Source: a virus
Lineage: Duplodnaviria; Caudoviricetes
IMG/VR virus record: IMGVR_UViG_3300037047_000246
DNA: 64,000 bases
Reading direction: 5' to 3' (one strand)
Below, piece after piece: positions 1,154-32,729 of this stretch. How positions within the stretch are numbered: position 1 is the stretch's first letter; the number at the start of each line of letters is the position of its first letter. The notes under the pieces were generated by a model that saw only the letters and a program-made list of their open reading frames with translations, was not told the DNA's origin and searched no databases. The translations under genes were made by a program, and so were the position numbers.

Positions 1154-3688
1154 TCTGACGCGTGGGAGAGGTCGTTGCTACTCTCCACCTACAGAACGTT
1201 CATCGGCGCGCCAAATTACCTCGAGCACATTCAGCTGCCTGAATTGTCCAAGGGCTTCATCATTGACGCCATCTCGCGGGATCTTGGTCAGACCTGCTAC
1301 ATCGACATCCTAGTTGGCACCGATCGCAAACATGGCAAGCTCGTGTCCGACATCCTGTCCGGCGAGCTGGCAGCCCTCAGCATGGGCTGCCATTTGCCTG
1401 GAACGCGAGTCACGCTCGCTGATGGCACTATCATCCCGATCGAGGACATTCGTCCAAATATGTACGTGGTGTCCCAGAAGGGCAATCCTTGCCGCGTTGA
1501 TAACTTGCAAGTCAGGCAAAACCGGTGGTCGATCCGGCGCATTAAGGCGTCGGGGTTGCCCGCGTTGCTGTCGACAGACAACCACAAATACTATGTGGTG
1601 CCCCGCCAAGATCTGAAAACCGAGAAACGGTACGGCCGCAATATTCTTTTGCCTGCGCCATATCGATTGGAGCACATGGAAGCTGGCGACATCCGAAAAG
1701 GAGACGTCGTCGCCACGCCAATCCCCACTGCTGTTGCCGCGCCGACAGTGTCTTTGCAAGAGGCCCGACTGCTTGGTCTGTGGATAGGCGATGGATGGAA
1801 ATGGGAAAACAAGCACGATTCGACTGTTGGCATTGGTGTTTGCTGCGACGCTGCAGACATTGAACTGTCGAGCGAGATCGAGCAAACGATCAACCAAATC
1901 TCCTGGAGCGCAGGAGAAATGCGGCTCGCAGTTGGCGGGCAAACGCCCAAGCGTGTGTCCGTGTCCACGCGTCGCAACGCGCGCTATTTGGTGTCATCCA
2001 GCCGCGCCGCGCGGCGCATTATTGATGCGCACACCACTGGCAGGAAAGCTCTAGACAAATCCATCGGACAAGATGTCATGTCGTGGCCGCAGGCGCATCA
2101 ATTGGCATTTCTGTCGGGAGTTGTCGACTCTGACGGCTGTGTCAGCACGACCCGTCGCGGCACCAAGCAAGTATTCATATCGACCCGCAATGAAAACCTG
2201 GCCAACCAGTATTTTTTGATGCTCGCCCGATGTGGAATTGTTTCCACGGTGTCGGCTATCAAGCGGGGCGGCACGCGAATGCTGCCCGGGGCTTCCGGCA
2301 CAGACTACCAGATACGGATTCGCAATGATCAGGTGACGCAGATTCCGGCGCTCAAGATCCGCCGCCACGCTGCCGACATCCGGTACATACCTGGCAACTC
2401 CGATCGATGGATTGCAGGCGAATATCTGTTCTCGCGTGTGAAGCAAGTGGATAAGCTTGAGCATTCTGGATTTGTCTACGACATGGAAGTGGACGACGAC
2501 CACTCCTATGTGGCAAATGGCGTGGGGGTGTCCAACTGCATCTCTCTGTTCACTATCTGCACCAAGTGCGGCAACATTGCAGCCGACGACGCGCAACTTT
2601 GCCCGTGCGTGCAATATGAGGGCAAAGGCACTCCGTACGCGGACGAAGACGGCGTTCAGCACCCGATTTCAGAGTTGATCGGGCATGTGACTGTGCCAAA
2701 TTCCAATCAGTTCATCGAGGCCTCGTGGGTGAAAAACCCGGCATTTAAGGGTGCCGTGCGGCGGAACTTCTTGAATGCCGATACCGTGGCCATTGCTTCA
2801 AAGCTCGGCGAAGCTGCGCGAGTTTACGAACTCAAGCAAACGGAGTCACATCCTGACGAGCTCAAGCGCGCAGCATCCACGCTGAGGCGAGCTCAGGGAC
2901 AAGACGAAGAGATTCCTGTAGACGACTCCGCTGCTGGTCAGGGGCAAAGCACCGATCAGGGGCAAAGCACTGACGGCGGACAGAGCGATTTGGACGACCT
3001 CAGTCAGAGCGGAGATCTTGGCGGCGACCAAGGCGGAGATCTTAGCGATCTTGGCGGCATGCCTGGGCCGAGCGGCGGACCCGGTGGACCCGGTGGCGGA
3101 TCCGGTGGCGGATCCGGTTTAGGTGGCCAAAGCCAAAGCGGACAAGGTCAGGGTCAAGGTCAGGCAGACAGCAAAGGTGGCATAGAAGAGATGCTTGAAC
3201 AAGCTCAACGCATGCTTGTTGAGAATCTTGTCAAAGCTCTCGGAGAAAAGCTCGCCCCCAAGCCTGAAGACGTGGAGAGCGTTGTGTCGTCTCCTGACTG
3301 GGAAGTTGCTGGAGGCAACGACAATTTGGTGCATGCGTCCACGGATTTTTCGGCTAAGCTTCGCAAAAAGTTTAGCAACAAGAAGCTGATCCGTTGGGCT
3401 GAAAACGTCCACCGCATTGTGCATGAAGGCGGACAAAAGGCAATTGCAGCGCACAGGATCAGTACTCGCGATCTAATAGTCCTTTCATGGATTGAAGATC
3501 GCATGAACGGTCGCAGTTATTCGTCAAATCTTTACAAGATAGCGATGAATGTTGGCGCACCGTCTTCGTACCCCAGCATGAAGTCTTTTGTGGCTGCATG
3601 CGACATGAAGCTTGGAAGAGCTTCTACGGACTCAGAGCGAGAGTTTTTCATTCGGAAAGGCAAGATTGCCTCTCTGGTTGAGTTTTAA
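2..3688 (+). CDS. Prohead (capsid maturation) serine protease, HK97/herpes assemblin-like, interrupted by two inteins; 5'-partial
   Basis: Frame is open from nt 2 (TEKPIQNVVVGDM). The spliced extein reads SDAWERSLLLSTYRTFIGAPNYLEH...LSMG|CISLFT...FIEASWVKNPAFKGA, giving His, SMG and E-x-S-x-V-x-x-PA-x-x-GA motifs typical of prohead proteases. It has a G/Q-rich linker and lies upstream of the scaffold and capsid genes. Confidence 0.7.
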   Translation, partial: TEKPIQNVVVGDMVISHTGHARKVTQVFVHPHKGFVYSVRRRGDSRRLVVTGEHPVHTNRPTRVGARTCFNPAAPFEFVSAGLLKKFDLLHTPKLQSSSGFEVSPGKAKLIGYFLAEGYFYKQSPNRVSSLFRDAFPGLASIPCSLEFSLCKDESDTIAATIVRLLRDEFGLDAVVKPSRTTPNGIVVSSSRSLEAVQFFLHHCGEGAATKRVSLDVMGMDPTLQLLVLQGWLEGDGTVKKTLTGWLSASSSSKDLASQLIHIAHRCGIVASRFSIVRSGRRRVKLANGFYSTVQDASKVCYSNVITINSLDAEAAVRGSWLEEAHRTAASNLKKHSFLQFRVQPDKIITQILDVRREDYVGTVYNFETEVDHSYVANGVAVHNSDAWERSLLLSTYRTFIGAPNYLEHIQLPELSKGFIIDAISRDLGQTCYIDILVGTDRKHGKLVSDILSGELAALSMGCHLPGTRVTLADGTIIPIEDIRPNMYVVSQKGNPCRVDNLQVRQNRWSIRRIKASGLPALLSTDNHKYYVVPRQDLKTEKRYGRNILLPAPYRLEHMEAGDIRKGDVVATPIPTAVAAPTVSLQEARLLGLWIGDGWKWENKHDSTVGIGVCCDAADIELSSEIEQTINQISWSAGEMRLAVGGQTPKRVSVSTRRNARYLVSSSRAARRIIDAHTTGRKALDKSIGQDVMSWPQAHQLAFLSGVVDSDGCVSTTRRGTKQVFISTRNENLANQYFLMLARCGIVSTVSAIKRGGTRMLPGASGTDYQIRIRNDQVTQIPALKIRRHAADIRYIPGNSDRWIAGEYLFSRVKQVDKLEHSGFVYDMEVDDDHSYVANGVGVSNCISLFTICTKCGNIAADDAQLCPCVQYEGKGTPYADEDGVQHPISELIGHVTVPNSNQFIEASWVKNPAFKGAVRRNFLNADTVAIASKLGEAARVYELKQTESHPDELKRAASTLRRAQGQDEEIPVDDSAAGQGQSTDQGQSTDGGQSDLDDLSQSGDLGGDQGGDLSDLGGMPGPSGGPGGPGGGSGGGSGLGGQSQSGQGQGQGQADSKGGIEEMLEQAQRMLVENLVKALGEKLAPKPEDVESVVSSPDWEVAGGNDNLVHASTDFSAKLRKKFSNKKLIRWAENVHRIVHEGGQKAIAAHRISTRDLIVLSWIEDRMNGRSYSSNLYKIAMNVGAPSSYPSMKSFVAACDMKLGRASTDSEREFFIRKGKIASLVEF
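1388..2536 (+). mobile_element. Intein 2 (383 aa) with LAGLIDADG endonuclease
   Basis: Starts CHLPGTRVTLADG, contains STDNHKY, LGLWIGDG and SGVVDSDG, ends FVYDMEVDDDHSYVANGVGVSN followed by Cys (+1). Confidence 0.9.
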
Positions 3689-6745: not shown

Positions 6746-6794
6746 CTATTTGCCATTCTCGAACAAACTTATTTCTTTTATTGTAAGTTCGAGA

Positions 6795-8414
6795 ATGGAC
6801 TCTTGCTCCATATGTGGCAAATCAGAACCTGAGGTGGCTTTTTATTTCCGGAAAGCCAAAAACGACAAATCCTACGCGTCTCCATACTGCAAGGAATGCG
6901 AGCGGAAGAAAGCCCGTGAGGCTAAAAAGCTCAGATATCACGACCCAGTTAAGGGTCAAAATATGAAAGCACGGGCAGCTGAGAGAGCGTCGCAGCCTGA
7001 ATATCGGGAGGCAGTCAATTCTGCATTTAGGATCAAGTATTCAACTGACCCACAGTATAGGCAATCGGTGCTTGACCGTATGCGGGACAACAGGGCAGAC
7101 GACGTCAAAAACCGGGTAATCAGGAGTAGGGCCGCTGCTTATTACCAGCGCAACCGCAAGCGCATAGTGGCGCAGAATACTAAGAGGGCGGCGGAAAATC
7201 CAAGGATCAGAATTCGCGGCTTCATGCGCGGGAGAATAAGCGAGGCGCTATCCAGTCATGGGAAATTGAAAGGTGGAGTTGCATCTTTGCAGTATTTGAA
7301 TTATTCTTGGGAGGATCTATATCGCCACCTGGAGTCTCAATTTGCGGACTGGATGAATTTTTCGAATTATGGGTCTGGGCCCGGCACGTGGCAAGTTGAC
7401 CACATAATCCCGCAGGTTTTCTTTCCGTATGATGACATGGACTCGGAGTTATTTAGGTGGTGCTGGGACCTGAAGAATTTGCGCCCACACCCATCAGATC
7501 TCAACGCTCAAGAAGACGATAGACGGCATTTACTGGGTGATCCAAGGGACATCCGACTCTTGTTTCAAGAGTTGCGGTTACCTCGAGTGGAGTTGAAGGA
7601 AAATCAGCAGGATGTGCTATGTGCTGCTGCTAGAATCCAGCCAGTGGCTGGAGCCTGCTCAATGTCTATGGTTGGTCTGAACTTCCTTGATTCAATATTC
7701 ACTACCCGATTCGGGTCCAGTACTGCACGATTCCCATCTCTGGAGAAAGCGCTGCTCAACGACCAGATGCTGTACGAGGCTGTCATATGTCTAATCAAAC
7801 GAGAGGAAAGAGTGACCCCAGGGGCAGTCCACTCGGCCATCAGGTACAGAGTTAGGACTCCTGGTCATTTCTTTCCGATGGCTGCAGTGTCCGTGCTCAA
7901 ACGATACGGGATGGGCATGCACGTGTTCGACCCGTTTCTCGGATGGGGCGGTCGATGTATGGCTGCCCTATGTACGGATGTCTCGAGTTATACCGGGTGT
8001 GATTTACAGTCAGAGGTCGTAAACGGGTGTTCGACTCTCGCTCACGCTTTCGGTTCACCACGGCCTGTAACTGTGCTGCATGTCGATGCGCTGGAGTTTC
8101 TGAAATCTACGAGTCAAAAATTTGGGTTGATATTCACAAGTCCCCCGTACATGGACACTGAGGACTACGGGATAGAGTCGGATGCTATGCGTGCCGGGTG
8201 GTTAGACTCATTTGTTTTCCCGCTAGTGGAACAGTTTAGTACTCACTTGGAACACGGAGGTCGGGTTGCGCTACACTTGAAAGATGTTAAGGGTGCACCA
8301 ACTTTTACTGCATATCACGCAGCGATGAAGGCTTATGGGTTTGTCCAAACAGGCAGACACAAGTACGGCAGAACATGGACGCAATCCGTGTATGTTTATG
8401 AACGTCCTTCATGA
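6795..8414 (+). CDS. HNH endonuclease fused to a SAM-dependent DNA amino-methyltransferase domain
   Basis: N-terminal CxxC...CxxC, basic helix, WQVDHIIP...WDLKNLRP (HNH), then VFDPFLGWGGR (motif I) and IFTSPPY (motif IV). Confidence 0.75.
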   Translation: MDSCSICGKSEPEVAFYFRKAKNDKSYASPYCKECERKKAREAKKLRYHDPVKGQNMKARAAERASQPEYREAVNSAFRIKYSTDPQYRQSVLDRMRDNRADDVKNRVIRSRAAAYYQRNRKRIVAQNTKRAAENPRIRIRGFMRGRISEALSSHGKLKGGVASLQYLNYSWEDLYRHLESQFADWMNFSNYGSGPGTWQVDHIIPQVFFPYDDMDSELFRWCWDLKNLRPHPSDLNAQEDDRRHLLGDPRDIRLLFQELRLPRVELKENQQDVLCAAARIQPVAGACSMSMVGLNFLDSIFTTRFGSSTARFPSLEKALLNDQMLYEAVICLIKREERVTPGAVHSAIRYRVRTPGHFFPMAAVSVLKRYGMGMHVFDPFLGWGGRCMAALCTDVSSYTGCDLQSEVVNGCSTLAHAFGSPRPVTVLHVDALEFLKSTSQKFGLIFTSPPYMDTEDYGIESDAMRAGWLDSFVFPLVEQFSTHLEHGGRVALHLKDVKGAPTFTAYHAAMKAYGFVQTGRHKYGRTWTQSVYVYERPS

Positions 8415-9776: not shown

Positions 9777-12131
9777 ATGGCGCCCATAAGTTACAAAATC
9801 GCAGAAAATCTGTACCTCGTCGAGCAGGTAGTTTGCAACAAAGCCCCTCAGGCAAAGCCAGCAGACGTTCCGACCAATCACATCGTCGTCATCGACTGCT
9901 CCGGGAGCATGTCCGGGGACTTGCCCAAGATCAGGGAGCAGCTCAAGCGCAAGATGCCCAAGCTGCTTGGCGAAAAGGACACACTGTCTGTGGTCTGGTT
10001 CTCCGGCCGAGGTCAGTTCGGCACTCTGCTGGAGGCCGAGCCAGTTTCGACTCTTGCCGACCTGCAGCAGGTCAATCAAGCAATCGACAGGTGGCTGAGG
10101 CCTGTGTGTCTCACCGGCTTCAAAGAGCCCTTGGAAGAGGTATCCCGGCTTGTCGAGAGGATCGCTAAGAAGCACCCTGGCGCTTTCTCCATGTTCTTTA
10201 TGTCCGATGGGTGCGACAACTGCTGGTCGCGCCAAGACATCATGCAAGCGGCGCAGCAGGCCGCCGGCGGTCTGGCTGCTGCCACCTTTGTCGAGTACGG
10301 ATATTATGCGGACCGGCCGCTGCTGGCTGCCATGGCGGAGAAGTCTTCCGGCGCGCTGATATTTTCGGAGGATTTTGACCGGTACGCGCCGCAGTTCGAG
10401 TCGGCCATGCAGAAGCGCCCGATTGGTGCCAAGCGCATCGAGGTGGCGGTGGCCGGAAATCCTGTCGGAGGGTTTGCGTTCGCTTTGTCTGGCGCAGACC
10501 TTCTCACTTTCGCAGTCGAAGACGGCAAAGCGTCGGTGCCCGAGGGCACGAGCACTGTCGCGTACCTGTCCTCCTCCGGTGTCGGAGTGGTGGCCAAGGA
10601 CCAGCTGACCATGTCGGCGAAGGATGCCGCCCGTGGCGACAAAGGCGACGGCACGCTGGCACTAGCTTACGCGGCCGCGTCGCTTTATGCTGTGCGCATG
10701 CGTGCCGACGTGGTGCTCCCAGTGCTCAAGAGCTTGGGCGACGTCGCATTCATCGAGCAGTTCGCCAACTGCTTCGGTCGCCAAAAGTATTCGGAGTTCA
10801 CGGATGCGACCAAAGCGGCGGCGGCGGAAAAAGATCGGCGCTGGACTCTGGGTTACGATCCGGACCGCGTGCCGCCGGAAAATGCCTTCACGGTGCTTGA
10901 TCTGCTGCAGATGCTGCAGTCGGACGAGGGCAACCGGGTGCTGATGGAGCATCCGAGCTTCAAGTACAGCGCCATCGGCCGAGGCCGCATCGACGCCTCC
11001 GAGCAGCTGACGCCTGAAGAGCAAGCCGAGGTGGAGCGGCTCACCGCGCAAATCGCTGCAGCTGGCAAGAACACCAAAAAGGTGGCGGAGCTCACAGCCA
11101 GGATAGCATCTATTGCTGCCAACAAGCCGAAGGCTTTGGAGTTTGAGGCCGATCCGGCTCCGGACGGTTACCCTATTTCGAGTCTGACGTTCAACGAGGA
11201 CCGACCCAACGTCTCCATTCTGGTTAGAAAGCCTGGGACTGTGGATTTGTCGAGTCGCGTGGCTGAAGAGCTGGACGGGCAGTTCCCGGGCCATTTCCCA
11301 ACGTTTATCTGGCGCAACTACGCCATCATCAAAGACGGCTTGGTGAACGTCGACGAGCTGCCAGTGCGCGTGACGTACAGCACCGAAAAAATTTTGCAAC
11401 AGTACGAGTCCGATGGCACTCTGCCGCGCGCCGCTTTCGACGACATCGGTTGCGGCGTAGTTGTGTTCCACCTGCGCAAGCTGCCGGTCGTCAACCGCCA
11501 GATGGTGCGATCGGTGTCGGCGGCAAAGTTTTTTGCCACAAAGTACGAGCTCGTCCAGGCCCAGGCTGCCCAAAAGGTGTTCAACGGCTTCACCAAGGAG
11601 CTGCTGCTTGCCAAGAAGGCAGAAGGCATCGCAGCGCAGTACGGAGACGAGGCCGCCGCTTGGCTCAAGGAGCAGGGCATCAGCGACGGCGGATTCTCGC
11701 CCAAGACGGTGCAGGCAGAAGCGACTGACTTTTATATGGGCAAATGCCTGAAGGTGTCTCTCAAAGGCTTGTCTAGCTTGCCTTCGCTCAAGGACCTGCG
11801 CGAGCAAATCAAGAAGGGCAAACTCAACGCGGCCGGCAAGCTCATGAAGCCGCATTTCGACCGGGTTGAGGCTTTCTTGGCCAGCGACATCTCCCAGTCA
11901 GCAAACAGGGACGCGGTGCTCGAAACGTGGCTTGAAGTGCAGGCCAACGCAGCCCGGGACAGGGCCCGGGGTCTGATCTACCAGATCGCGCAGACCACGT
12001 TCTGCTTGGTGGTGGGGCAAGTCTGGTTTTCAGAATTCTCGTCGCTCGACGAGAACTCCATGGCCATCGACACCGATGAAGGGCGCGTCGAATGCAAGGC
12101 GGAGCTTTTGGAAACGCGCATCAAGTTGTGA
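9777..12131 (+). CDS. von Willebrand factor A (vWA) domain protein
   Basis: MIDAS DCSGS (HIVVIDCSGSM), T and FMSDG motifs; GGAG SD before ATG 9777. Confidence 0.8.
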   Translation: MAPISYKIAENLYLVEQVVCNKAPQAKPADVPTNHIVVIDCSGSMSGDLPKIREQLKRKMPKLLGEKDTLSVVWFSGRGQFGTLLEAEPVSTLADLQQVNQAIDRWLRPVCLTGFKEPLEEVSRLVERIAKKHPGAFSMFFMSDGCDNCWSRQDIMQAAQQAAGGLAAATFVEYGYYADRPLLAAMAEKSSGALIFSEDFDRYAPQFESAMQKRPIGAKRIEVAVAGNPVGGFAFALSGADLLTFAVEDGKASVPEGTSTVAYLSSSGVGVVAKDQLTMSAKDAARGDKGDGTLALAYAAASLYAVRMRADVVLPVLKSLGDVAFIEQFANCFGRQKYSEFTDATKAAAAEKDRRWTLGYDPDRVPPENAFTVLDLLQMLQSDEGNRVLMEHPSFKYSAIGRGRIDASEQLTPEEQAEVERLTAQIAAAGKNTKKVAELTARIASIAANKPKALEFEADPAPDGYPISSLTFNEDRPNVSILVRKPGTVDLSSRVAEELDGQFPGHFPTFIWRNYAIIKDGLVNVDELPVRVTYSTEKILQQYESDGTLPRAAFDDIGCGVVVFHLRKLPVVNRQMVRSVSAAKFFATKYELVQAQAAQKVFNGFTKELLLAKKAEGIAAQYGDEAAAWLKEQGISDGGFSPKTVQAEATDFYMGKCLKVSLKGLSSLPSLKDLREQIKKGKLNAAGKLMKPHFDRVEAFLASDISQSANRDAVLETWLEVQANAARDRARGLIYQIAQTTFCLVVGQVWFSEFSSLDENSMAIDTDEGRVECKAELLETRIKL

Positions 12132-12391
12132 TGCAACTTGTAGTGCCTCACCACATAGAGTTTCAACAGCATCCGGACGTGCTTGACATTCGCGTAATCA
12201 GGTACAGAGTTTTGTGCCGCAGGTGCGGATGCTGTTGTGAAGCTTCCCTGGACACATATTCGTACCTCAGCACTGGTGCGGGCGACAACAGGATACTGAG
12301 GCAGCTCATGCAGGAGTGGGAGATCGCGTTCCCCGCAGATTGCGACGAAGCTGCCTCTCTGAACCTAATCAGGTCTGTGCAAGAAACCTAA
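12131..12391 (+). CDS. Small CxxC protein, paralog A
   Basis: TGATG overlap with vWA gene; CRRCG...CDEA...RSVQET. Confidence 0.7.
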   Translation: MQLVVPHHIEFQQHPDVLDIRVIRYRVLCRRCGCCCEASLDTYSYLSTGAGDNRILRQLMQEWEIAFPADCDEAASLNLIRSVQET

Positions 12392-12405
12392 GGGTCCGGC
12401 CAAGC

Positions 12406-12666
12406 ATGACTGCTCACCAAGTCCAGTTCCACGCCTCGTCGGATGTTGCGACGAGCTTGCGGATGGGATATGCTCTGCGGTGCCGCAGATGCGGCTCCAA
12501 CGTCGCGGCATGGCTCGACATGAGGCATTTCAGGAACGTTCTCGGCACCAAAAGTCTCGAAGAGCGGATGCACGTCAAGCTCGAGCTGGAGTGGACGCAC
12601 CAAGTGCCTCATGACTGCGACGAAGCCATGGCGATCAACACGGTGCGCATGGTGCAAGAGTCGTGA
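12406..12666 (+). CDS. Small CxxC protein, paralog B
   Basis: CRRCG...CDEA...RMVQES; colinear with paralog A. Confidence 0.7.
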   Translation: MTAHQVQFHASSDVATSLRMGYALRCRRCGSNVAAWLDMRHFRNVLGTKSLEERMHVKLELEWTHQVPHDCDEAMAINTVRMVQES

Positions 12667-12709
12667 GTCTCGCGCATTTTGTGGTTCGAATTCCGGCGCT
12701 TGGGCTACC

Positions 12710-12738
12710 TTGACTCGACCCGGACGAAGTGTTATTTT
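12710..12738 (+). promoter_or_regulatory. Sigma-70-type (early) promoter
   Basis: TTGACT-17 nt-TATTTT with a TG extended -10, upstream of a run of small genes. Confidence 0.55.
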
Positions 12739-12855
12739 TGAATTATGCACTCGCTTAGATCTGACTGGAACTGCCACTTGTAACTACCTCGCGGTCCCCC
12801 GTCGCCGTCGCTGCTACCAACACCAGAGCAAGTGACGATTGAGACGGAGGACATC

Positions 12856-13221
12856 ATGAAGCAGTCAGTTGTAAGCATCAAGCATTGGATTAAGGCCAGC
12901 ATGGCCGAATCGCTCGAGATCCGCAAGCAGATACGCGCATCTGAGGGCGACGAACGCTCCCGCCTCTGGGGATGTAAGCGCAGCCTTGGTGACGACACTC
13001 GCCATATGCTGCTTGCCTACGCGTTTCTGCGCGGCAGGCTGTACTCGGCGACAGAGTGGAAGTGCGCCCCCAATAACAAACCCCGCCCCTCCTTCGTGCA
13101 GCATTTCCTTGAGGTCTCTTTGCCCAAGGGAGAGCCTTTGCCGGCCGAGTGGGATAAAGATAGCATCAAGGCGTGGCTGGCCCGCCCGATGGCCTCCGAG
13201 GCCAAGGAGCAGGCAGCATGA
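12856..13221 (+). CDS. Hypothetical phage protein
   Basis: GGAGG SD; ATG 12856; RHMLLAYAFLRGR segment. Confidence 0.7.
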   Translation: MKQSVVSIKHWIKASMAESLEIRKQIRASEGDERSRLWGCKRSLGDDTRHMLLAYAFLRGRLYSATEWKCAPNNKPRPSFVQHFLEVSLPKGEPLPAEWDKDSIKAWLARPMASEAKEQAA

Positions 13222-13664
13222 GGACGATTGTCAAGACCGAGCTTGTGCCAGCCGAGGAGGTCACTTACACGACGTACGGCTGCGACCTGTGCGACTTCAC
13301 GTCGGACGATGAAGACAACATCAAGCTGCACCACGGCAAGGAGCATGCGTGCAAGCGCAAGATGGAAGTGGACGGTGTCGAACTGTATTGGTTCGACACG
13401 GAGGAGGATGCCCAGACCTGGATCGAGCAGGATGAGTACGGCGCCGATGAGCGCAAGGTGCGTTGGTCTGACCCCGGATGGTACACCGCCTCGTGGTCGA
13501 CCGGGCCGTGCAGGCGCGGCTGCTGTACGCGAAGCTGCCGATCGCTCGAATCTGTGGGCTCCTACCTGTCTGAACTGGAGTACGCGGCCGAGCAGGCCGA
13601 ACAGCAGGCTGACAAGAAGCGCCGCCTGGCTCAGGCGATTCGCCAGGAGGTTGGCGATGGCTGA
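13218..13664 (+). CDS. Hypothetical protein with CxxC-x-H-x-H zinc finger
   Basis: ATGA overlap; YGCDLCDF...LHHGKEH. Confidence 0.7.
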   Translation: MRTIVKTELVPAEEVTYTTYGCDLCDFTSDDEDNIKLHHGKEHACKRKMEVDGVELYWFDTEEDAQTWIEQDEYGADERKVRWSDPGWYTASWSTGPCRRGCCTRSCRSLESVGSYLSELEYAAEQAEQQADKKRRLAQAIRQEVGDG

Positions 13665-13983
13665 GAAGCTCTTTCTGGTCACTCGCGCAGATCTGCGGCC
13701 GGGTCAGCAGGCGGTTCAGGCTGCCCACGCAGCACACCAGTTTTGTGTCGATTTCCCAACTGAGTTCGCGGCCTGGTTTGAACGTTCCAACACTTTGGCA
13801 ATGCTCACTGTGCCCGACGAACAGGCGCTGCGGCAGTTGGCTGACCTGGCAGATGACTGGGACTTGAAGTTGTCGATGTTTCGCGAGCCTGACCTTGGCA
13901 ACGCTTTGACTGCTTTGGCGCTCGAGCCAGGTTCAGGCACCAGAAGGCTGTGCCGCAATCTGCCGCTAGCTCTCGGCGGCTGA
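13657..13983 (+). CDS. Peptidyl-tRNA hydrolase, Pth2-like
   Basis: AGGAGG SD; KLFLVTRADLRPGQQAVQAAHA...FREPDLGNALTALALEP...LPLAL matches the PTH2 fold pattern. Confidence 0.75.
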   Translation: MAEKLFLVTRADLRPGQQAVQAAHAAHQFCVDFPTEFAAWFERSNTLAMLTVPDEQALRQLADLADDWDLKLSMFREPDLGNALTALALEPGSGTRRLCRNLPLALGG

Positions 13984-14056
13984 CTACCTCGGAAATTTAG
14001 CTGCCTGGAGCGTAGCGGCGGCCAGTGGAAGCCATCCGCGCGAAAGGTATCAAGAA

Positions 14057-14290
14057 GTGACATTCCCGGTGACCGAATCAGACCTGTGGAGCGTATACCC
14101 ACGGGCGACCCACTGCTGGAGGCTCGTATCCACTGACGCGGACCGGGTCGAAGTGTACGAATGCGATCGGTGCTCGGCCAGGAAGTTCATCTACAACGAC
14201 GTGAACGTTCAAGTGTATGACGCGGCTGGCCGAGAAGCGTCCATGGTCGAGTGCGAATACTACGGGATAGCGAACGTTATGGAAGAGTGA
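14057..14290 (+). CDS. Small hypothetical protein
   Basis: GTG start; HCW...YECDRC; ends ECEYYGIANVMEE. Confidence 0.6.
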   Translation: MTFPVTESDLWSVYPRATHCWRLVSTDADRVEVYECDRCSARKFIYNDVNVQVYDAAGREASMVECEYYGIANVMEE

Positions 14291-14337
14291 CTCTCGGCGC
14301 ATTTGTCGCGCAGTTTGCGAACAAGGATAGCACACAA

Positions 14338-14427
14338 GCCCTCGTAGCCCAGCGGTCGAAGGCAGGCGGCTTTAAACCGTCCACGAGCGAGAGCTCGTCA
14401 CCGGGGGTTCGACTCCCTCCGAGGGCA
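14338..14427 (+). tRNA. Class II tRNA with UUA anticodon (ochre suppressor; probably Tyr-derived, Ser/Leu not excluded)
   Basis: Acceptor GCCCTCG/CGAGGGC plus A73; D-arm GCCC-AGCGGTCGA-AGGC; anticodon stem GGCGG/CCGTC with loop CT-TTA-AA (anticodon 14372-14374); 6-bp variable arm with GAGA loop; T-arm GGGGG-TTCGACT-CCCTC; CCA not encoded. Confidence 0.85.
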
Positions 14428-14428
14428 C

Positions 14429-14989
14429 TTACTGCGATCGTGACAGCTTGGCAGCTATTTTTTCGAGCTGAAGCTGGAAATTTTGCAAAACAAACGGCAG
14501 CGCTATGGAAACCCTGCCGTCTCCACGGTCCGCGCCGTATATTGTCAGATCGAACGCTCCCCAAGACACTGGCGCAGGCAGCGGTCCTGCCGTTTTGGCA
14601 CCAGGCATGTACGACAGCGTCACGTGCGGCTTGAACTCAGGCCATTTGGCGCTGTACGACACTCCTGAGAGGTCGAGCTCCTCTTTCAGGTCTCGCTCCA
14701 ACTGCATGAGCTCAGGGGACTGCACCGGCAGGATAACTGGGGTGCCGTGGTGGCCCGGGTCGAACGAAGCCACTTCGCTGCATGTTAGCGTGAACGGCGA
14801 CGTTCGGCGCGTGACCTTGTGGCAAGCCACCATTGCAGCCGCAAGCTGCTCCATCGATGCTCCGTCGCCGAGGTACACCACAGTCACGTGCATTTCAGAC
14901 GCTGCTTGAACGTCGCCCGGCAGCGCGCCTGACATTTGCGCCAGAAGTCTGCCGACTTCCTGCGGGACTCGCAGAGCTATCATGGCCAT
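14429..14989 (-). CDS. 2H phosphoesterase (LigT/Acb1-like)
   Basis: Two HxT motifs, MHVTVVYLG and FKPHVTLSY, with typical spacing. Confidence 0.85.
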   Translation of the reverse strand: MAMIALRVPQEVGRLLAQMSGALPGDVQAASEMHVTVVYLGDGASMEQLAAAMVACHKVTRRTSPFTLTCSEVASFDPGHHGTPVILPVQSPELMQLERDLKEELDLSGVSYSAKWPEFKPHVTLSYMPGAKTAGPLPAPVSWGAFDLTIYGADRGDGRVSIALPFVLQNFQLQLEKIAAKLSRSQ

Positions 14990-15021
14990 AAGGCCTGCAA
15001 TCGACAAAACGTTTATCGAGC

Positions 15022-15918
15022 ATGCAGCGTGTGAACGATTTGTATTTGGGCCGCAACGCGCTTGGGCACGCCGCATATGCCGGGCGCAATTTCGCTGTCG
15101 GAGACCTCGTGGCGCAGTTCTCTGGCGACATCTGCTCAGCTGAGGATCTGCCGGAAATATCGTCCCCGGAGGACGACAGGTACATGCAGGTGGGCAGAAG
15201 CGTCTACATGGGCCCTTCTGGCTGGTTCGACGATTACTGCAACCACTCGTGCGATCCGAACGCCGGCGTGGCGGACGTCGACGGGTCCATGTGGCTGATT
15301 GCCATTCGGCCGATTGAGGCCGGAGATGAAATCGTGTGGGACTACTCCACCACGATGGACGAAGACGACTGGGAGATGGATTGCCGGTGCGGCAGCCCTG
15401 CGTGCAGAGGCCGAATCCGAGACTTCAAGCACCTGGAGCTCGGCTTGCAGCTCAAGTACGTCAGCCTAGGCATAGTGCCGGACTTTGTCCTGCAATCAGT
15501 GTCGCCTGACCTGCTGTCCTCGGCTCTCCGGTTCATGTCCGGGCAAGAGCCGGACGCGCCTTTGCTGGAGAAGCTTGCGCTGTCCATAGACGGCCCAAGC
15601 AAAAAGAAAAGCAAGGGCAAAGGGGGCAAGTCGCCTCCGACTGTGACTCTGCTCGACGTTGAAATGACCGAGGACGGCGGCGTCAAACAGAGCTGGGGCG
15701 TGTACGCTGAGGGGCAGAAAGTTGGCGTACACTCGGTGACCGACGCCGAGGGGGACACGAAGATACTGGGCAACGATCTGGACCTTGGCGAAGGCGGATT
15801 GACCGCGCAGCAAGCAGTTGCCCACATCCTGCAGGGTGCCCATCCGAGGTACTATCCGAAGCCTGGGAAAACTGTGGTGCTGGACAGCGCATTCGTGCAC
15901 AGCGCCTCTCGGAGCTGA
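15022..15918 (+). CDS. SET-domain protein lysine methyltransferase with post-SET motif and C-terminal extension
   Basis: YCNHSCDPNA, AIRPIEAGDEIVWDY, CRCGSPACRG. Confidence 0.9.
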   Translation: MQRVNDLYLGRNALGHAAYAGRNFAVGDLVAQFSGDICSAEDLPEISSPEDDRYMQVGRSVYMGPSGWFDDYCNHSCDPNAGVADVDGSMWLIAIRPIEAGDEIVWDYSTTMDEDDWEMDCRCGSPACRGRIRDFKHLELGLQLKYVSLGIVPDFVLQSVSPDLLSSALRFMSGQEPDAPLLEKLALSIDGPSKKKSKGKGGKSPPTVTLLDVEMTEDGGVKQSWGVYAEGQKVGVHSVTDAEGDTKILGNDLDLGEGGLTAQQAVAHILQGAHPRYYPKPGKTVVLDSAFVHSASRS

Positions 15919-18247: not shown

Positions 18248-20092
18248 TTACTCGGTCGTCCATTCAGAAGCGTCCAGTTCGCCCACGCCAGACTCTGGGC
18301 TGCCCAGCACCAGGTCTTCCTCTTTCGCCATTCTGCATTCCTCGTCTGTGATGGACCCGCGCCGAAGCATCAGGTCCAGGATCAGGTTGACGTGGTTGCG
18401 CTTGGCTTCATGCATTTTGCCTGATGCGCCAAAGTAGGAGGCTCTCGGCCTGGGCAGAATAGACGCCAGGAACACTGACTGGGCAAGAGACAGTCGAGAA
18501 GGGTCTGTGCCGAAGTAGTGATTGGCCGCTTGCCCGATGCCCCAGATATCTGGGCCGAACTCCACGGCGCTCAGGTACGCTTCCAGTATCCTGTCCTTGG
18601 TCATGCGCTGCTCTATCGCCATGACCAGAAAGAACTCTTGGACTTTGCGAGACGCTGTTTTGTCCCTGCTCAAGAACATGTTTTTGGCCAGCTGCATGGT
18701 GATCGTGCTGGCCCCACGAACGAACTTTCTGTCTTTGACATTATCCCGGATGGAGTTTCGCACAGCTTCCACGTCGATGCCTTTGTGGCCCCAGAATCCG
18801 GGGTCTTCTGTGGTCACCACGGCTTTCGCCATGTACGGGGAGACGTCGGCCAAAGACACTTTGGCTGGCCATCCGGCAGCGGCTGACTTGCCTGTGCGGC
18901 GGCCTGTGGAGGAGTAGATCGTGCGCGCAAAAGGTTTGCCGGACAGGGCTGCAGACACTTTGTCCGGCAGCTCCAGCACCTTGCATTTGTTGACGAGCTC
19001 GAAGAAAGCCTCAGGCGTTTTTCCGCTTTGCTCGCTCACTTTCGCCGCGCTTCGCATCTCCCCTCCCAGGCGCATGCCTACAAGCTCTTGCTTCATCGAG
19101 TCCGGCACAGCTTGCAGCACGTCTGAACACGGCGTCCAGCCCATGCTGGCTTCCAGCTTCCAGCTCTCTGCGTCTCTCGACGCCAGCATTTTCAGCGGCA
19201 CCTGCCCCGCAGTCACGTCTGCCGACCACGACCAGCGGCGGGCAGACTGCACCAGCATCTCTCCGCTCACGCAGGTCTCAGGCAGCGTCACAGAGTCTTC
19301 TGCCACGGCCCCGTGCTGGCCTGTGGCAGACTTGAACTGGGCCTGGACCGAGATTCGGGCGCCGCCTTCGCCGGGCGCCGCCGTCACCGCTGCCTGCGCG
19401 CCGGCTACGGACAGACCCCAAGGCAAGTCTGCTCTGGCCGCCGCAGCCGAGAACGACACCGAGCCGCCTTGAGACTGCACGTCCATCACCTCGAGTTCGT
19501 GCAGCCGGATGCTGTGGCCCCGGGCAAACAAAATGACTTCTGGCGACTTGGCTTCAGTCTTCCCTGAGCCTTTGATCACGCGCATGGAGTGGCTCTTTGC
19601 CTGACCCCATTTGGACTGCACGATCAGACCCTCCAGCAGCACTTCGACCGAGGTGTCCAGGTTCGCGGTCACGCAGTCCGCTTCCACCTTTGTGCCGCTG
19701 CCGTCGATATCCTCCCACAGCAGCGGCACATTCTTTATTCGAATGCGCATTGATCGGCCAGACGCCCCAGCCTCGCTCTTGGCTTTCGGCCACCGGCCGC
19801 TCATGGTGATTTTGCCGCCTTCAGCGGTCACCTGCTTCGGGGAGAGCTTGTAGTCGAGTTCGATCAAAGCGAAGCTCAGCACAACGTGCCGAGCCTTGTC
19901 TTTGGACGTCATGTCGAGACCGCTCAGCCGAACCCCGCTTCTGGTCAAGGACACCTGTTGCACGGCGGCGTCCCATCCCCTGGCCTCGAGCTCGCCAATC
20001 AGCGCTCTCTTCGCCAAGACAGGAGCGGACAGGTATGCTGCCGCCCCGAGTGCAAAGACAGACAGGGCGGCCGCTTTTGCGCGTTTTCGCAT
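18248..20092 (-). CDS. Peptidoglycan glycosyltransferase (GT51, MtgA-like) with N-terminal membrane anchor and long central region
   Basis: GT51 motifs EDPGFWGHKG, GASTITMQLAKN, RKVQE, KDRILEAYL, AANHYF; hydrophobic N-terminal AAALSVFALGAAAYL. Confidence 0.9.
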   Translation of the reverse strand: MRKRAKAAALSVFALGAAAYLSAPVLAKRALIGELEARGWDAAVQQVSLTRSGVRLSGLDMTSKDKARHVVLSFALIELDYKLSPKQVTAEGGKITMSGRWPKAKSEAGASGRSMRIRIKNVPLLWEDIDGSGTKVEADCVTANLDTSVEVLLEGLIVQSKWGQAKSHSMRVIKGSGKTEAKSPEVILFARGHSIRLHELEVMDVQSQGGSVSFSAAAARADLPWGLSVAGAQAAVTAAPGEGGARISVQAQFKSATGQHGAVAEDSVTLPETCVSGEMLVQSARRWSWSADVTAGQVPLKMLASRDAESWKLEASMGWTPCSDVLQAVPDSMKQELVGMRLGGEMRSAAKVSEQSGKTPEAFFELVNKCKVLELPDKVSAALSGKPFARTIYSSTGRRTGKSAAAGWPAKVSLADVSPYMAKAVVTTEDPGFWGHKGIDVEAVRNSIRDNVKDRKFVRGASTITMQLAKNMFLSRDKTASRKVQEFFLVMAIEQRMTKDRILEAYLSAVEFGPDIWGIGQAANHYFGTDPSRLSLAQSVFLASILPRPRASYFGASGKMHEAKRNHVNLILDLMLRRGSITDEECRMAKEEDLVLGSPESGVGELDASEWTTE

Positions 20093-20132
20093 CACAGATC
20101 TGACATTTGAGTTTTGATTACTTTCGTGCTGC

Positions 20133-20342
20133 ATGGCAATTAAATTCTTCAACATAGCTGCCCGCGTGGCGTGCTTGGCGCAGCCGCTGTCCGATCGTCC
20201 GGACTACGGTTCAAACACCAACCCGGCTCTGCCCCGCGGCGGCGAATGCGGATGCGGCGGGGAGTGCAAATGCGGGGGCGGAGAGTGCGAAGGCGGGTGC
20301 AAATGCTGCGCCAGCAAGACTTCGAAACCGCTGCCTACTTAA
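20133..20342 (+). CDS. Small Cys/Gly-rich (metallothionein-like) protein with IAARVA helix
   Basis: MAIKFFNIAARVAC...GGECGCGGECKCGGGECEGGCKCC. Confidence 0.6.
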   Translation: MAIKFFNIAARVACLAQPLSDRPDYGSNTNPALPRGGECGCGGECKCGGGECEGGCKCCASKTSKPLPT

Positions 20343-23666: not shown

Positions 23667-25358
23667 CTATAGCTTTTTGAACCACAACACCTTCTCTGAT
23701 TCCATCACTTTAGTCAAGCCTGCAAATTTGACCAATTCTTGCTCTGTCAAACCCATGTTGCTGGCTTGGGCATATACGGTCTTCTTATGTATGGCCTTGA
23801 TCGTCACTGGATCAAGATAGTGATATGATTTGTCTGTGTTGCCTAGTTTAACCCAACCAGCTGCCGCGTATATTGTGCCTGAGTGTCCTACAGTCGGGTC
23901 ACTGAAACTAGTGATGGCAATGGTTTCACGTTTTTCTTTCTTGAATGCCTTAACAAACCTGTTGATCAAATTAGAGCCAGCGTTACTGGTTTTGAATGAT
24001 GGGGATATACAAAATCGTTTGAGCTCTCTCAGACTCTTGTTCGTGAGTGTGGTTCCGGATAGCCTGCTTACTTTGGCACACGTGCACTGTCTGATCGGAG
24101 AACCGAATGAGCATGCCGCCACTAGTATTCCTGACTGAGTGAATGCTCCATAGTGACAGGCATTTTTGGTGAAACCTATGTAATGGTATTGGCTGAAGAA
24201 TGCGCAAGCCGCGTCGGCAGATATCGAGCTGATTGTTAGACTGTTCAGGTCGTCTGTGATTGGATCCACTGTGATGGACAGATGTCTGCTTAGGATCGCA
24301 AAGACTCTTCCAAGGTTTATTTCATGTTCCCAAATTGATATGAGCTTGTAGTTTGTGTGCCTCTGAACATAAGTGGCTTTGCCTCTATCTCGTGACGTTC
24401 CAACATATCCATTGTGCTTGAAATCATGCCAAAAGTCCCCCTGACATTCTACAAGTAAATTCGCTTTGGGAATATAGAAATCGAACGAATATGGGCCCAC
24501 TTCATACTGGCGTTCATATTTCGTTCCGATTCTTTCTAATGTTGATTTGACCAGTCGCTCTGTCAGTGGATCAGATAATTTGGCTTTCACTGCCGGAATG
24601 TTTACGATTGATGATACGCCATACTTTGTCCGTATCGTGTTTTTTAGTTTTATGCTTTCACATTTTTTACATGTTACCTGTCCAGCTTGACTAACGAAAT
24701 ATGCTATCGTTGTTGGTTTGCGAGTCGAGCAGTGTGGACAGATATGGATTATCTTTTTGCTTGAGTGAAGAGTTAACGTTGCGGGATCGTATCCGAATTT
24801 GATCTTGGTAGCTTCTGTGTCGATCAGATGGACTAACCCACAGATCATATTTCGGTTTTTGGCGCCGTAATCTGACGCAAAGGATTTTTTGTTCACATCC
24901 GATTTTGTTGTCGCATGCAGCGAGGCAAGTCCGATGCAGTCTTGGCATGCGGCTGACTTACGCTTACTGAGCGTGTTTAAGCATGACTCATACCTTTCGT
25001 CGCAAAATTCACATATTGCAACTACTCTTTTAGCAGAGAACGGGCCTAATGAATTCGGCAGGTATCCGAATTTAGTTAGTGTTGCCTCTGAATCTATTAA
25101 TTCGCTTTTGGCACGTGAGCTAGTGACCTTCAGAAAAAACTCGTGCCTATCTTCATCGGTGTTTTTCATAGAGTACGAAGTAGATATCGAGTTGCATTTC
25201 TTGCAAGCTATTGGCACTCTCCTACGTTGCGTAGCGAATCTGTTCATGCAAAATTGGCAGACCGCAATTACCTTTCTGTGAGATGACTGACTAAGACTGC
25301 TCGGCAAATAGCCGAACTGCAGTAACGTTGATTCAGAGTCAATCACTGAGGTTAGCAT
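23667..25358 (-). CDS. Zn-ribbon repeats + DUF559/PD-(D/E)XK nuclease + Mom-like GNAT domain
   Basis: CxxC pairs; FDFYIPKANLLVECQGDFWH; C-terminal FSQYHY...RELKRFC...SFSDPTVGHSGTIYAAAGW; markedly AT-rich insert. Confidence 0.7.
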   Translation of the reverse strand: MLTSVIDSESTLLQFGYLPSSLSQSSHRKVIAVCQFCMNRFATQRRRVPIACKKCNSISTSYSMKNTDEDRHEFFLKVTSSRAKSELIDSEATLTKFGYLPNSLGPFSAKRVVAICEFCDERYESCLNTLSKRKSAACQDCIGLASLHATTKSDVNKKSFASDYGAKNRNMICGLVHLIDTEATKIKFGYDPATLTLHSSKKIIHICPHCSTRKPTTIAYFVSQAGQVTCKKCESIKLKNTIRTKYGVSSIVNIPAVKAKLSDPLTERLVKSTLERIGTKYERQYEVGPYSFDFYIPKANLLVECQGDFWHDFKHNGYVGTSRDRGKATYVQRHTNYKLISIWEHEINLGRVFAILSRHLSITVDPITDDLNSLTISSISADAACAFFSQYHYIGFTKNACHYGAFTQSGILVAACSFGSPIRQCTCAKVSRLSGTTLTNKSLRELKRFCISPSFKTSNAGSNLINRFVKAFKKEKRETIAITSFSDPTVGHSGTIYAAAGWVKLGNTDKSYHYLDPVTIKAIHKKTVYAQASNMGLTEQELVKFAGLTKVMESEKVLWFKKL

Positions 25359-29958: not shown

Positions 29959-30619
29959 ATGATCATCGAAATACGCGCAGCAGAAGGTGGACAGGACGCC
30001 AAACTTCTCGTGCTGGAACAGCTGAGCGTGTACGCAAAGCGCGCCGCTCGCCACTGTCTTTGACCTCGAAATCTTGGACCAGCGCCCAGGGTCGGTGACC
30101 CTGCGGTCCACAAGCCCCAAAGCAGAAGAGTTTTTCCGGAACGAATCAGGAGGTATGCGCTGGCAGCGGGTGCCGCCCACCGAGAAGCGCGGGCGTGTGC
30201 AGACCAGCACAGTTACTGTGGCAGTCTTGCCGGAGCCCGATTTCGAGCAGATGCGCATCAGAGACAGCGACCTGTCTTTTCGCACCTGCAGAGGGTCCGG
30301 GCCTGGCGGACAGAATCGCAACAAGCTCGAGACTGCTGTGCAGGTCACGCATGTGCCGACTGGGCTCTGCGTCCGGTGCGAGACTGAGCGGTCGCAGCTG
30401 CAAAACAAGCAGGGAGCGTTGGCGCTGCTCCGAGCTCGGTTGTGGCAAATTCAGCTGCAGGGGCGCATCGACGCGCGTGCTGCTGACCGGAGGCAGCAGA
30501 TAGGTTCCGGAGAGCGCGGAGACAAGCGCCGGACCATAGCTTTGCAGCGAGACCAAGTTGTCGATCACGTGACTGGCCAGACCTGGAAAGCGAAAGCGTA
30601 TTTGCGAGGTGAGTGGTAA
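29959..30619 (+). CDS. Class I release-factor homolog lacking domain 1, RF1-type (PxT), expressed through a +1 frameshift at 30058-30064
   Basis: Frame 0: MIIEIRAAEGGQDA...AARHCL-TGA. +1 frame continues DLEILD...ESGGMRWQRVPPTEKRGRVQTSTVTVAVLPE...GSGPGGQNRNK...QQIGSGERGDKRRT. The joined product (~219 aa) is colinear with RF1 domains 2-4. Confidence 0.85.
30058..30064 (+). promoter_or_regulatory. prfB-type +1 programmed ribosomal frameshift site CTT TGA C
   Basis: In-frame CTT then TGA then C, the heptamer known from bacterial RF2 genes; no upstream internal SD seen. Confidence 0.7.
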
Positions 30620-32414: not shown

Positions 32415-32486
32415 GCTCGATCTTTGGTAGTGTTTTCTTGCAGCCACGTCCGGGAAACAAAGAGCTGAGGCATACGCGGAAAATAC

Positions 32487-32729
32487 ATGAACACTAATAC
32501 AGAAAACGAGTTTGAGACGCACGACATTTACCTGGCTGCCTTTCTGGCTGTGTCGTCATGCACCCTGCTGCGCCGGCGCAAGCAAGCCAACCGCGTCTAC
32601 TTCATCTTCACCAACCCTGCCGGTCCAGTCCAAGACCTCCGGGAAGCCTTCTTTTCGGGGCAAGCTAAAGTGTCCGCTCATGAGTACGCACAGCGCATCG
32701 TGGCGTTTAAGCAGTTGTGTTACGAGTGA
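32487..32729 (+). CDS. DUF5659-like small protein
   Basis: FETHDIYLAAFL...RVYFIF pattern. Confidence 0.55.
   Translation: MNTNTENEFETHDIYLAAFLAVSSCTLLRRRKQANRVYFIFTNPAGPVQDLREAFFSGQAKVSAHEYAQRIVAFKQLCYE

Follow-up and report, generated by a model that had tools for sequence, protein, structure and literature searches.

The 64,000-nt stretch of DNA analysed here (the window) belongs to a phage genome of 362,524 bp (G000), which is a single contig with direct terminal repeats and is complete according to CheckV (100%). A tRNA gene at 14338..14427 on the + strand has the anticodon UUA, complementary to the stop codon UAA, and is the final gene of a + strand unit that consists of a promoter, a short upstream open reading frame (uORF), geneA, geneB, a gene for a Pth2-type peptidyl-tRNA hydrolase (Pth2), a small gene and the tRNA gene itself. 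The uORF lies 1.6 kb upstream of the tRNA gene in the same operon; it ends in TAA, and the reading frame continues past this stop into Arg-Gly-Pro-Pro (RGPP). It is likely that tRNA(UUA) is the key of a stop-gated arrest-peptide switch which controls the Pth2 operon.

The tRNA gene and its conservation

The gene encodes a class II tRNA of 90 nt with a long variable arm and a 7/5 cloverleaf. ARAGORN reported it as the sole tRNA in the window, at 14338-14428 (+), labelled 'tRNA-Stop' with the anticodon tta (position 35, at 14372-14374), and the Rfam model RF00005 matched 14338-14427 over its full length (model positions 1-71) with 50.6 bits against a gathering score of 29 (E 6.8e-08). The acceptor stem GCCCTCG/CGAGGGC has 7 bp, including G1-C72 and C2-G71, the discriminator base is A73 and CCA is not encoded. 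The D arm consists of a stem of 3 bp (GCC/GGC) and a loop with GG; the anticodon stem GGCGG/CCGTC has 5 bp and closes the 7-nt loop C-U-UUA-A-A; the variable region of 21 nt forms a 6-bp stem capped by a GAGA tetraloop, with four bases left unpaired on the 3' side; and the T arm reads GGGGG-TTCGACT-CCCTC. All marks of a canonical cloverleaf are present: besides the 7-bp acceptor stem and the 5-bp T stem these are U33, a purine at position 37, the GG of the D loop and the TTCRA of the T loop. U33 together with A36-A37-A38 is the anticodon-loop context of efficient UNN-reading tRNAs, and tRNA(UUA) carries both. A previous reading of this stretch (the sequence-only reading) had described the complete cloverleaf with this loop, the long variable arm, G1-C72 and A73, and had named ARAGORN as a check; ARAGORN, Rfam and the sequence all agree with that description. 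It had also called for read support at the anticodon, and a contig of another, separate public run (X4, from the same study as a possible source run) has zero differences over 13519-14518. Thus the TTA anticodon is not an error confined to one assembly. The phage is present in groundwater or coal-seam samples (runs X1-X5).

A protein with a VWA domain encoded 2 kb upstream (68% identity) led to a 376,674-bp relative in IMG/VR (G001) with the same gene order. G001 holds a tRNA(UUA) gene at the equivalent site, while the neighbouring proteins are only 47-71% identical to those of the window. The G001 copy departs from that of the window at 18 of 90 positions (approximately 80% identity), and both sides have changed at pairs 4-69, 5-68, 6-67, 29-41, 31-39 and 50-64 and at pairs of the variable stem. 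Compensatory changes are thus found in four of the five stems, whereas the loop CTTTAAA is invariant. When the two were aligned with two class II CUA homologues, 96% of the cells were paired and 16 of the 26 pairs were altered on both sides, which none of 500 shuffles attained. The suppressor also outlasted most other tRNA genes. Of 39 tRNA genes in G001, 37 form an array at 109-154 kb, one tRNA-Lys gene is at 247 kb and the suppressor stands alone at 336 kb beside Pth2; G000 is down to four (Leu-CAG, Gln-UUG, Met-CAU and tRNA(UUA)), the array being nearly all lost and the suppressor retained. Conservation in relatives, another check proposed earlier, therefore held, and the pattern of substitutions indicates that the tRNA(UUA) gene is under selection.

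Nucleotide searches with the 3-kb region and with the tRNA in a phage collection and in E. coli genomes gave nothing or chance matches of 38 nt. Neither an exact-pattern scan of IMG/VR with the anticodon arm nor an IMG/VR scan with the single Pth2 sequence gave a match, and the relatives were reached through the VWA neighbour and through Pth2 alignments.

The leader of the operon

Upstream of the operon is a sigma-70-like promoter (TTGACT-17 nt-TG-TATTTT, 12710..12738, +), the sole such site within 12500-15200, and a comparable promoter (TTGACA-17-TACCAT) precedes the equivalent leader in G001 (locus L001). Its position would place the start of the transcript at about the A of the uORF ATG, i.e. 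the mRNA would be leaderless. The uORF, MHSLRSDWNCHL (12745..12783, +), has 12 codons and ends in the TAA at 12781-12783. The in-frame continuation past this stop, Leu-Pro-Arg-Gly-Pro-Pro (12784..12801, +), has the RGPP motif at 12790-12801. The Shine-Dalgarno (SD) sequence CGGAGGAC and the ATG of geneA follow at 12845..12858 (+), with the SD 4 nt ahead of the ATG.

The Gly-Pro-Pro codons, GGU CCC CCG, are predicted to double as an anti-SD sequence. In the minimum free energy (MFE) fold of the window leader the codons GGUCCCCCG are paired with the SD, with seven of nine bases paired, and MFE folds of the related loci described below show the Gly-Pro-Pro codons paired with an SD-like run just 5' of the next start in 16 of 20 cases. 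Ribosomes are documented to arrest at RAPP and RGPP motifs (PMC7897499, PMC10951233, PMC12992588), and by sequence the window has the hallmarks of such a leader, with R-[A/G]-P-P in a short reading frame upstream of a ribosome-binding site (RBS) that is predicted to be sequestered.

At the same place G001 has the leader MTHFL-TAA-MPRGPP, and MTHFL-TAA is common to L001/L034 and L044. The frames of leader and geneA are continuous in the window and in G001, but several relatives have a stop immediately after RGPP, so that the leader does not serve to produce a fusion with geneA. There is just one such leader per genome; no other stop-RGPP leader was found in G000 or G001.

Matching of leader stop and anticodon in related loci

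Searches with Pth2 alignments yielded 10 loci from IMG/VR and 80 from metagenomes, and in most of them Pth2 is followed, no more than about 1 kb on, by a tRNA that reads a stop. A strict leader was defined as an ATG uORF of at most 30 codons and its stop, followed by L/I/V/M and then Arg-Gly/Ala-Pro-Pro, with 1-12 residues from the stop to the Arg, the L/I/V/M counted. Twenty non-redundant loci had both a strict leader and a suppressor tRNA, and in all 20 the leader stop was the codon read by the tRNA: 13 TAG/CUA, 5 TAA/UUA and 2 TGA/UCA (permutation p <= 1e-5). An ochre suppressor needs an in-frame UAA that covaries with it, and the TAA before RGPP, with 20 of 20 matches, is such a codon; the anticodon itself, TTA at 14372-14374, is the same in G001. 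UAG could also be decoded by such an anticodon through wobble. Altogether about 60 tRNAs of these modules share a stop-reading anticodon that matches the leader. The regulated partial read-through proposed in the sequence-only reading thus belongs to the right class of explanation, as there is a conserved UAA target in the leader of the tRNA's own operon. It had also remarked that phage suppressors are mostly described as CUA or UCA tRNAs of recoded phages; among the related modules the ochre type is not rare, as five of the 20 use UUA, and a tRNA-Sup-TTA has been noted in Klebsiella phage phiKp24 (PMC8386662).

Locus L044, whose Pth2 is the closest relative (72%), shares the leader, and its tRNA gene is likewise placed between the small gene and the gene for a 2H phosphoesterase. 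Its UUA tRNA is a 74-nt class I molecule, unlike the class II tRNA of the window, so the anticodon is conserved and the tRNA body is not. When 58 suppressor tRNAs of the modules were grouped by single linkage at 72% identity, the clusters mixed CUA, UUA and UCA, but as 72% is near the background identity of tRNAs this supports no conclusion.

Two near-identical loci, L040 and L041, have no leader stop. Their common leader, MSTLTPML-L(TTA)-IHLPRGPPL (5594-5650 in L040), has the sense codon TTA four codons before Pro-Arg-Gly-Pro-Pro, and the 74-nt class I tRNA downstream of Pth2 (6796-6869 in L040) has the anticodon UAA. By analogy, these loci represent a bldA-like, rare-codon version of the same switch.

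Cluster C mycobacteriophages encode a Pth2 homologue (42% identity) followed 250 nt on by a tRNA(CUA), annotated as 'tRNA-OTHER'; one such locus (L124) is region 2590-3680 of Mycobacterium phage NoodleTree (MK359346.1). The RGPP leader is absent from the cluster C locus. NoodleTree has a mini-ORF, ATG-TTT-TAG, ahead of gene 163, and the GTG annotated as the start of its hydrolase is directly preceded by an ATG-TAG. These phages could possibly serve as a cultured model for the link between the tRNA and Pth2.

Genetic code and genome-wide read-through

Using a greedy cover of open reading frames (ORFs), the coding density of G000 was 93.1% under code 11, with TGA as the commonest stop (247, compared to 95 TAG and 66 TAA), in agreement with the sequence-only reading, which had described intact ORFs and TGA as the most frequent stop. 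With TAA as a sense codon the density was 93.3%, an increase of 0.2 points, and reading any single stop as sense hardly shifted it. G001 likewise uses code 11, with 93.2% coding. The pattern of a recoded phage was therefore not found in this comparison, and no conserved in-frame TAA turned up in long genes.

Of the 408 genes of G000, 161 close with TAA or TAG. No avoidance of TAA was seen in G000, in G001 or in the loci with UUA tRNAs, nor was the suppressed stop avoided around modules of any type; TAG, for example, was not avoided with CUA tRNAs. In-frame extensions past TAA were not shorter than those past TGA (medians 20.5 and 22.5 codons, respectively, p = 0.30), and there was no excess of back-up stops after TAA. 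Pairs of neighbouring genes in the same frame that are split by a single stop were somewhat commoner at TAA (11 of 68) than at TGA (21 of 258), but none of the 11 TAA pairs was fused in G001, where the orthologues were in different frames or unaligned through the junction. A genome-wide screen in which ORFs joined across TAA or TAG were compared with G001 by tblastn was dropped, since conserved translations in other frames dominated its output. It follows that suppression is weak or of short duration, or else that the phage tolerates short extensions.

Amino acid identity of the tRNA

The long variable arm of tRNA(UUA) points to serine, leucine or tyrosine. LeuRS needs A73 together with features of the D loop and the tertiary structure. 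The variable stem of tRNA-Tyr has 3 bp in E. coli and T. thermophilus, compared to 6 bp in the window tRNA. SerRS relies on the variable arm and ignores the anticodon, bacterial tRNA-Ser mostly has G1-C72 and G2-C71 with G73 of moderate weight, and TyrRS requires A73 and U35 (PMC9976931). The window tRNA combines A73 and U35 with C2-G71, a D loop of the Ser/Tyr type (AGCGG) and a Ser-like variable stem of 6 bp that is separated from C48 by three unpaired bases. Of the traits of tRNA-Ser, the long 6-bp variable stem and G1-C72 are present, whereas G2-C71 and G73 are absent from the window copy. G73 is found in the G001 copy and in the class II CUA homologues, being present in L034, L083 and L105, and C2-G71 in both the window and the G001 copies. 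The sequence-only reading had pointed out that UUA is one change from Tyr GUA, as in supC-type suppressors. This route is not singled out, because a single change would likewise lead from Ser UGA or Leu UAA to UUA, and the G73 of the sister copy, C2-G71 and the 6-bp variable stem are un-Tyr-like.

No close match to the body was found among the Ser and Leu tRNAs of G001 and the other loci. The inserted residue would lie between the uORF and the arrest motif, so that its nature may be unconstrained. If the identity of the residue is irrelevant to regulatory read-through, this would explain the unrelated tRNA bodies in related modules.

A tRNA-Cys identity was considered and rejected. The D-arm pattern GTAGCCNAGNGGTCGAAGGCA was sought in 185,579 species genomes and was found mostly in tRNA-Cys(GCA), and also in some tRNA-Thr genes and truncated tRNA remnants, but the Cys determinants U73 and GCA are absent from the window tRNA. 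Long-arm tRNA-Cys(GCA) genes of 84-88 nt with U73 and an encoded CCA were seen in many Burkholderiales isolates and metagenome-assembled genomes, and long-arm tRNA-Thr(UGU) genes of 85-88 nt in genomes of Eremiobacterota (Cybelea). Both, seen in loci L147, L150, L152, L162, L167, L168, L171, L173, L181, L182, L190, L192 and others, are class-II-like forms of isotypes that normally are class I.

Genes of the operon and its surroundings

The first gene of the operon, geneA (12856..13221, +), encodes 121 aa predicted to form a helical hairpin; it is the conserved first gene of the module, with homologues in 21 other module loci (tblastn). Its AlphaFold model has a pLDDT of 92. GeneA had no Pfam match, no profile match in the PDB and no usable match in the ESM Atlas, and its model had no significant Foldseek match in the PDB or the AFDB clusters; the best named AFDB-cluster hit (rank 2, below an uncharacterized protein) was a 126-aa protein labelled 'Transposase', with a non-significant E of 0.02. 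The start of geneB (13218..13664, +; 148 aa) overlaps the stop of geneA (ATGA). GeneB is lineage-specific and has no homologue among the other module loci.

Pth2 (13657..13983, +; 108 aa), whose start overlaps the end of geneB, was assigned to Pfam PF01981 by profile search (E 1.8e-06, 28.6 bits against a threshold of 23), and a profile of 10 Pth2 homologues matched the archaeal Pth2 structures 2zv3 (1.3e-08), 1rzw and 1wn2 as well as human Bit1, 1q7s. The last protein gene ahead of the tRNA (14057..14290, +) encodes 77 aa ending in ...GIANVMEE and has homologues at the same place in L034 and L044. Related tail endings, each closed by TGA, are also seen in the small proteins encoded at 12092-12391 (...SVQET) and 12316-12666 (...MVQES), next to ...NVMEE at 14057-14290.

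Converging on the 3' end of the tRNA gene, the gene for a LigT/Acb1-like 2H phosphoesterase (14429..14989, -; Pfam PF13563, PF02834 and PF23474) has its stop 1 nt away. The gene adjoins the tRNA in the window, L034 and L044, is 4-5 kb off in L039 and L116 and is absent from the remaining loci. Its position next to the tRNA is thus limited to the closest relatives, and it is outside the core of the module.

An RF1-type release factor is encoded at 29959..30619 (+), with the end of a PCRF domain, an RF-1 domain, RVPPTE and GGQ. Its reading frame is split by CUU-UGA-C (30058-30064) and can be read completely only via a +1 shift. RF1-type factors act on UAA and UAG, and this factor would therefore compete with tRNA(UUA) at UAA.

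Elsewhere in the window, a 1216-aa protein (38-3688, +) contains an intein with a LAGLIDADG homing endonuclease (Intein_splicing, LAGLIDADG_3, Hom_end). There are also five large genes for homing endonucleases of the HNH or endonuclease VII type (6750-8414, +; 23667-25358, -; 30669-32522, -; 42863-44488, +; 54590-56503, +), an unusual load of selfish nucleases. Four of the five also match a Mom-like DNA-modification family (phrog_1384), while the gene at 6750-8414 matches methyltransferase-type families instead. Two genes near the tRNA operon encode proteins uncommon in phages, a SET-domain protein (15022-15918, +) and a protein with a GT51 peptidoglycan transglycosylase domain (18248-20155, -; Transgly, E 3.5e-50).

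Discussion

Judged from its fold and its conservation, tRNA(UUA) is a real, selected and natural ochre-type suppressor tRNA gene in a phage that is not recoded. Its selected job would be a single codon: the host-charged tRNA would decode one UAA, the stop of the 12-codon leader in its own operon. When the tRNA is absent, ribosomes would terminate at codon 13, and the Gly-Pro-Pro codons would remain paired with the RBS of geneA. When the charged tRNA is present, a fraction of the ribosomes would read through, make Leu-Pro-Arg-Gly-Pro-Pro and stall on RGPP. The stalled ribosome would cover the anti-SD sequence and release the SD, and translation of geneA and the following genes would be turned on; the start of geneB overlaps the stop of geneA, and that of Pth2 the end of geneB. 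Charging, read-through, stalling and the direction of regulation are what we infer for this locus. As RGPP lies behind the UAA, a ribosome would get there only if the tRNA reads UAA, and as the tRNA gene comes last in the transcription unit that starts with this leader, the leader stop may be regarded as a private codon that has no reader in the host and for which the phage tRNA is the key.

Several observations weigh against this mechanism. The leader fold of the window is not exceptional (z = -1.5), the equivalent helix in G001 being stronger (z = -4.1), and four of the 20 loci lack the SD pairing in the MFE fold. The counts behind the stop-anticodon covariation are partly inflated by shared ancestry, although the TAA/UUA class alone spans at least two tRNA architectures. 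Two loci, L104 (4196) and L114 (171), have the leader MNHFW-TAA-VRRARGPP and no UUA tRNA within about 4.5 kb; their nearest tRNA, about 2 kb 3' of Pth2, has a D arm like that of the window tRNA, with the anticodon UUU according to ARAGORN (loop ATTTTAA). The identity signals of the tRNA are mixed (A73 compared to G73 in the sister copy, C2-G71, three unpaired bases before C48). No core of a Ser-type or Tyr-type aminoacyl-tRNA synthetase was found in G000, so charging would depend on a host enzyme. The single metatranscriptome run (X7) gave contigs at 13941-14166 and 14811-14964, and the tRNA is outside these covered stretches. Finally, the model leaves unexplained what purpose is served by gating Pth2 with a tRNA of the same operon.

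Global low-level suppression as the main purpose of the tRNA is unlikely, but it is the strongest of the other explanations. The tRNA would extend host proteins ending in UAA or UAG as part of a takeover, extend phage proteins, or buffer nonsense mutations, and the leader would be a gauge of suppressor activity that tunes Pth2 to the load of stalled ribosomes and dropped peptidyl-tRNAs. Such a role and the leader mechanism could both apply, the sole difference being which effect was selected. Pth2 recycles peptidyl-tRNA, for which there might plausibly be a need when ribosomes pass stops, the RF1-type factor of the phage acts on the same codons, and the 161 of 408 phage genes with TAA or TAG ends would be exposed. 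However, TAA and TAG are not avoided, extensions are not shorter, back-up stops are not in excess and none of the 11 same-frame pairs is kept as a fusion; and the anticodon tracks the leader stop across relatives, which a purely global role would not require.

It is very improbable that the tRNA is a decoy or spare part in an arms race over tRNAs, in which it would counter anticodon nucleases or tRNA-modifying toxins together with Pth2 and the 2H phosphoesterase, the stop anticodon being incidental. Phage tRNAs that evade anticodon nucleases exist, and the tRNA is flanked by Pth2 and by a 2H phosphoesterase that may be RNA-end-healing or Acb1-like, with its stop 1 nt away. The 2H gene adjoins the tRNA only in the three closest relatives, however, a leader-matching stop anticodon across about 60 module tRNAs is not predicted, and we know of no anticodon nuclease that targets a UUA anticodon. 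Reassignment of TAA in part of the genome, as in the block-wise recoding of late genes in some phages, has hardly any credibility left: phages with partially recoded TAG or TGA do carry matching suppressor tRNAs (PMC13037316, PMC12386605), but the density of 93.1% compared to 93.3%, the like behaviour of G001 and the lack of conserved in-frame TAA in long genes speak against it. Equally remote is a functionless accident, i.e. a recently mutated or decaying tRNA or an assembly error, which the closeness of UUA to several sense anticodons (one substitution) might suggest but which is already contradicted by the same anticodon at the same site in a relative with compensatory changes and neighbours of 47-71% identity, by the identical X4 contig and by the 20 of 20 matches.

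The stop-gated switch may have a wider meaning. Tentatively, and with rather less confidence than for the window itself, we suggest that the orphan suppressor tRNAs of large phages with the standard code are generally keys to private codons, and that the module gauges charged tRNA against release factors. A leaderless mini-ORF would end in a codon for which the host has no tRNA, either any of the three stops or a rarely used sense codon like UUA; the phage tRNA would read this codon, and the RGPP stall would open the RBS of the Pth2 operon. The phage could thereby sense or time the state of the translation apparatus, the RF1-type factor being gated in turn by a UGA frameshift. Codon and anticodon would switch together in evolution, and tRNA bodies would be swapped freely since the residue would be irrelevant.

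Unlike the published orphan suppressors, tRNA(UUA) comes with a concrete, conserved and testable target, and about 20 independent loci, which between them use all three stops, show the same pairing of stop and anticodon. If the mechanism is correct, it would be a natural counterpart of the amber- and ochre-suppression gating built by synthetic biologists, and would unite three well-studied devices, namely SD sequestration, an arrest peptide and a suppressor tRNA, within a single circuit. Large phages would moreover have an unexplained need to control a peptidyl-tRNA hydrolase. Pipelines that equate a suppressor tRNA with recoding would mis-call such genomes, and the unrelated bodies of the stop-reading tRNAs of the modules provide a natural library of suppressor tRNAs.

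Comparison with known systems

Orphan suppressors have been reported from jumbo phages with the standard code, i.e. XacN1 (two CUA), Atu_ph07 (UCA) and phiKp24 (tRNA-Sup-TTA), and the respective papers state that the targets or roles are unknown; the authors of XacN1 examined read-through of all 18 amber stops in silico and found nothing (PMC5852040, PMC6102473, PMC8386662). Like the window phage, these phages have a stop-reading tRNA while the stop is still in use, and XacN1 and Atu_ph07 encode peptidyl-tRNA hydrolases. The three were not retrieved by the Pth2 query, and no dedicated check for the module was made on them. In a full-text search with incomplete coverage, no publication was found in which a suppressor tRNA is connected with Pth2 or with a stop-gated leader. 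The window phage differs from these reports in having a conserved target, which is in a leader rather than at the end of a gene.

In Streptomyces, bldA encodes a tRNA-Leu(UAA) for the rare codon UUA, a dedicated tRNA that gates genes with a poorly read codon. The variant of L040 and L041 uses exactly TTA, with a tRNA of anticodon UAA, whereas the window has a stop as its gating codon and, as the target, a leader thought of here as acting on the downstream genes by ribosome stalling. Laboratory ochre suppressors of E. coli derive from tRNA-Tyr (supC/supM), tRNA-Lys (supG/supL) and tRNA-Gln (supB), and there are the psu tRNAs of T4. They share the anticodon UUA, A37 and A38 with the window tRNA, but they arose by mutation under laboratory selection, while the window tRNA is natural, conserved in phages and tied to a target in cis, and the G73 of its sister copy breaks the rules for tRNA-Tyr.

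Allo-tRNAs have a long variable arm and unexpected anticodons, one of them matching UAA, and are probably charged by a SerRS blind to the anticodon (PMC5389517). They have an 8/4 or 9/3 branch and a D arm like that of tRNA-Sec (PMC5389517), whereas the window tRNA has the 7/5 composition and a 3-bp D stem, and its would-be eighth acceptor pair, T8 opposite C, does not form.

Large surveys link suppressor tRNAs to recoding (PMC13037316, PMC12386605). In recoded phages, including crAss-like, Lak and other jumbo phages with TAG or TGA as sense, a phage tRNA also reads a stop, and some of these phages encode release factors (PMC13037316, PMC12386605). Their genes have many in-frame stops and the density under code 11 collapses, whereas the window phage retains 93% and the affected codon is the UAA of one short leader.

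The leader itself resembles ApdA, ApdP and ApcA, which are encoded upstream of Sec/YidC genes by a short ORF with Arg-Gly/Ala-Pro-Pro and whose stall is thought to expose an RBS (PMC7897499, PMC10951233, PMC12992588). In the window, the motif is past a stop, the proposed input is the tRNA, or the balance of tRNA and release factor, rather than protein export, and the genes proposed to be regulated are Pth2 and geneA, in the setting of a phage.

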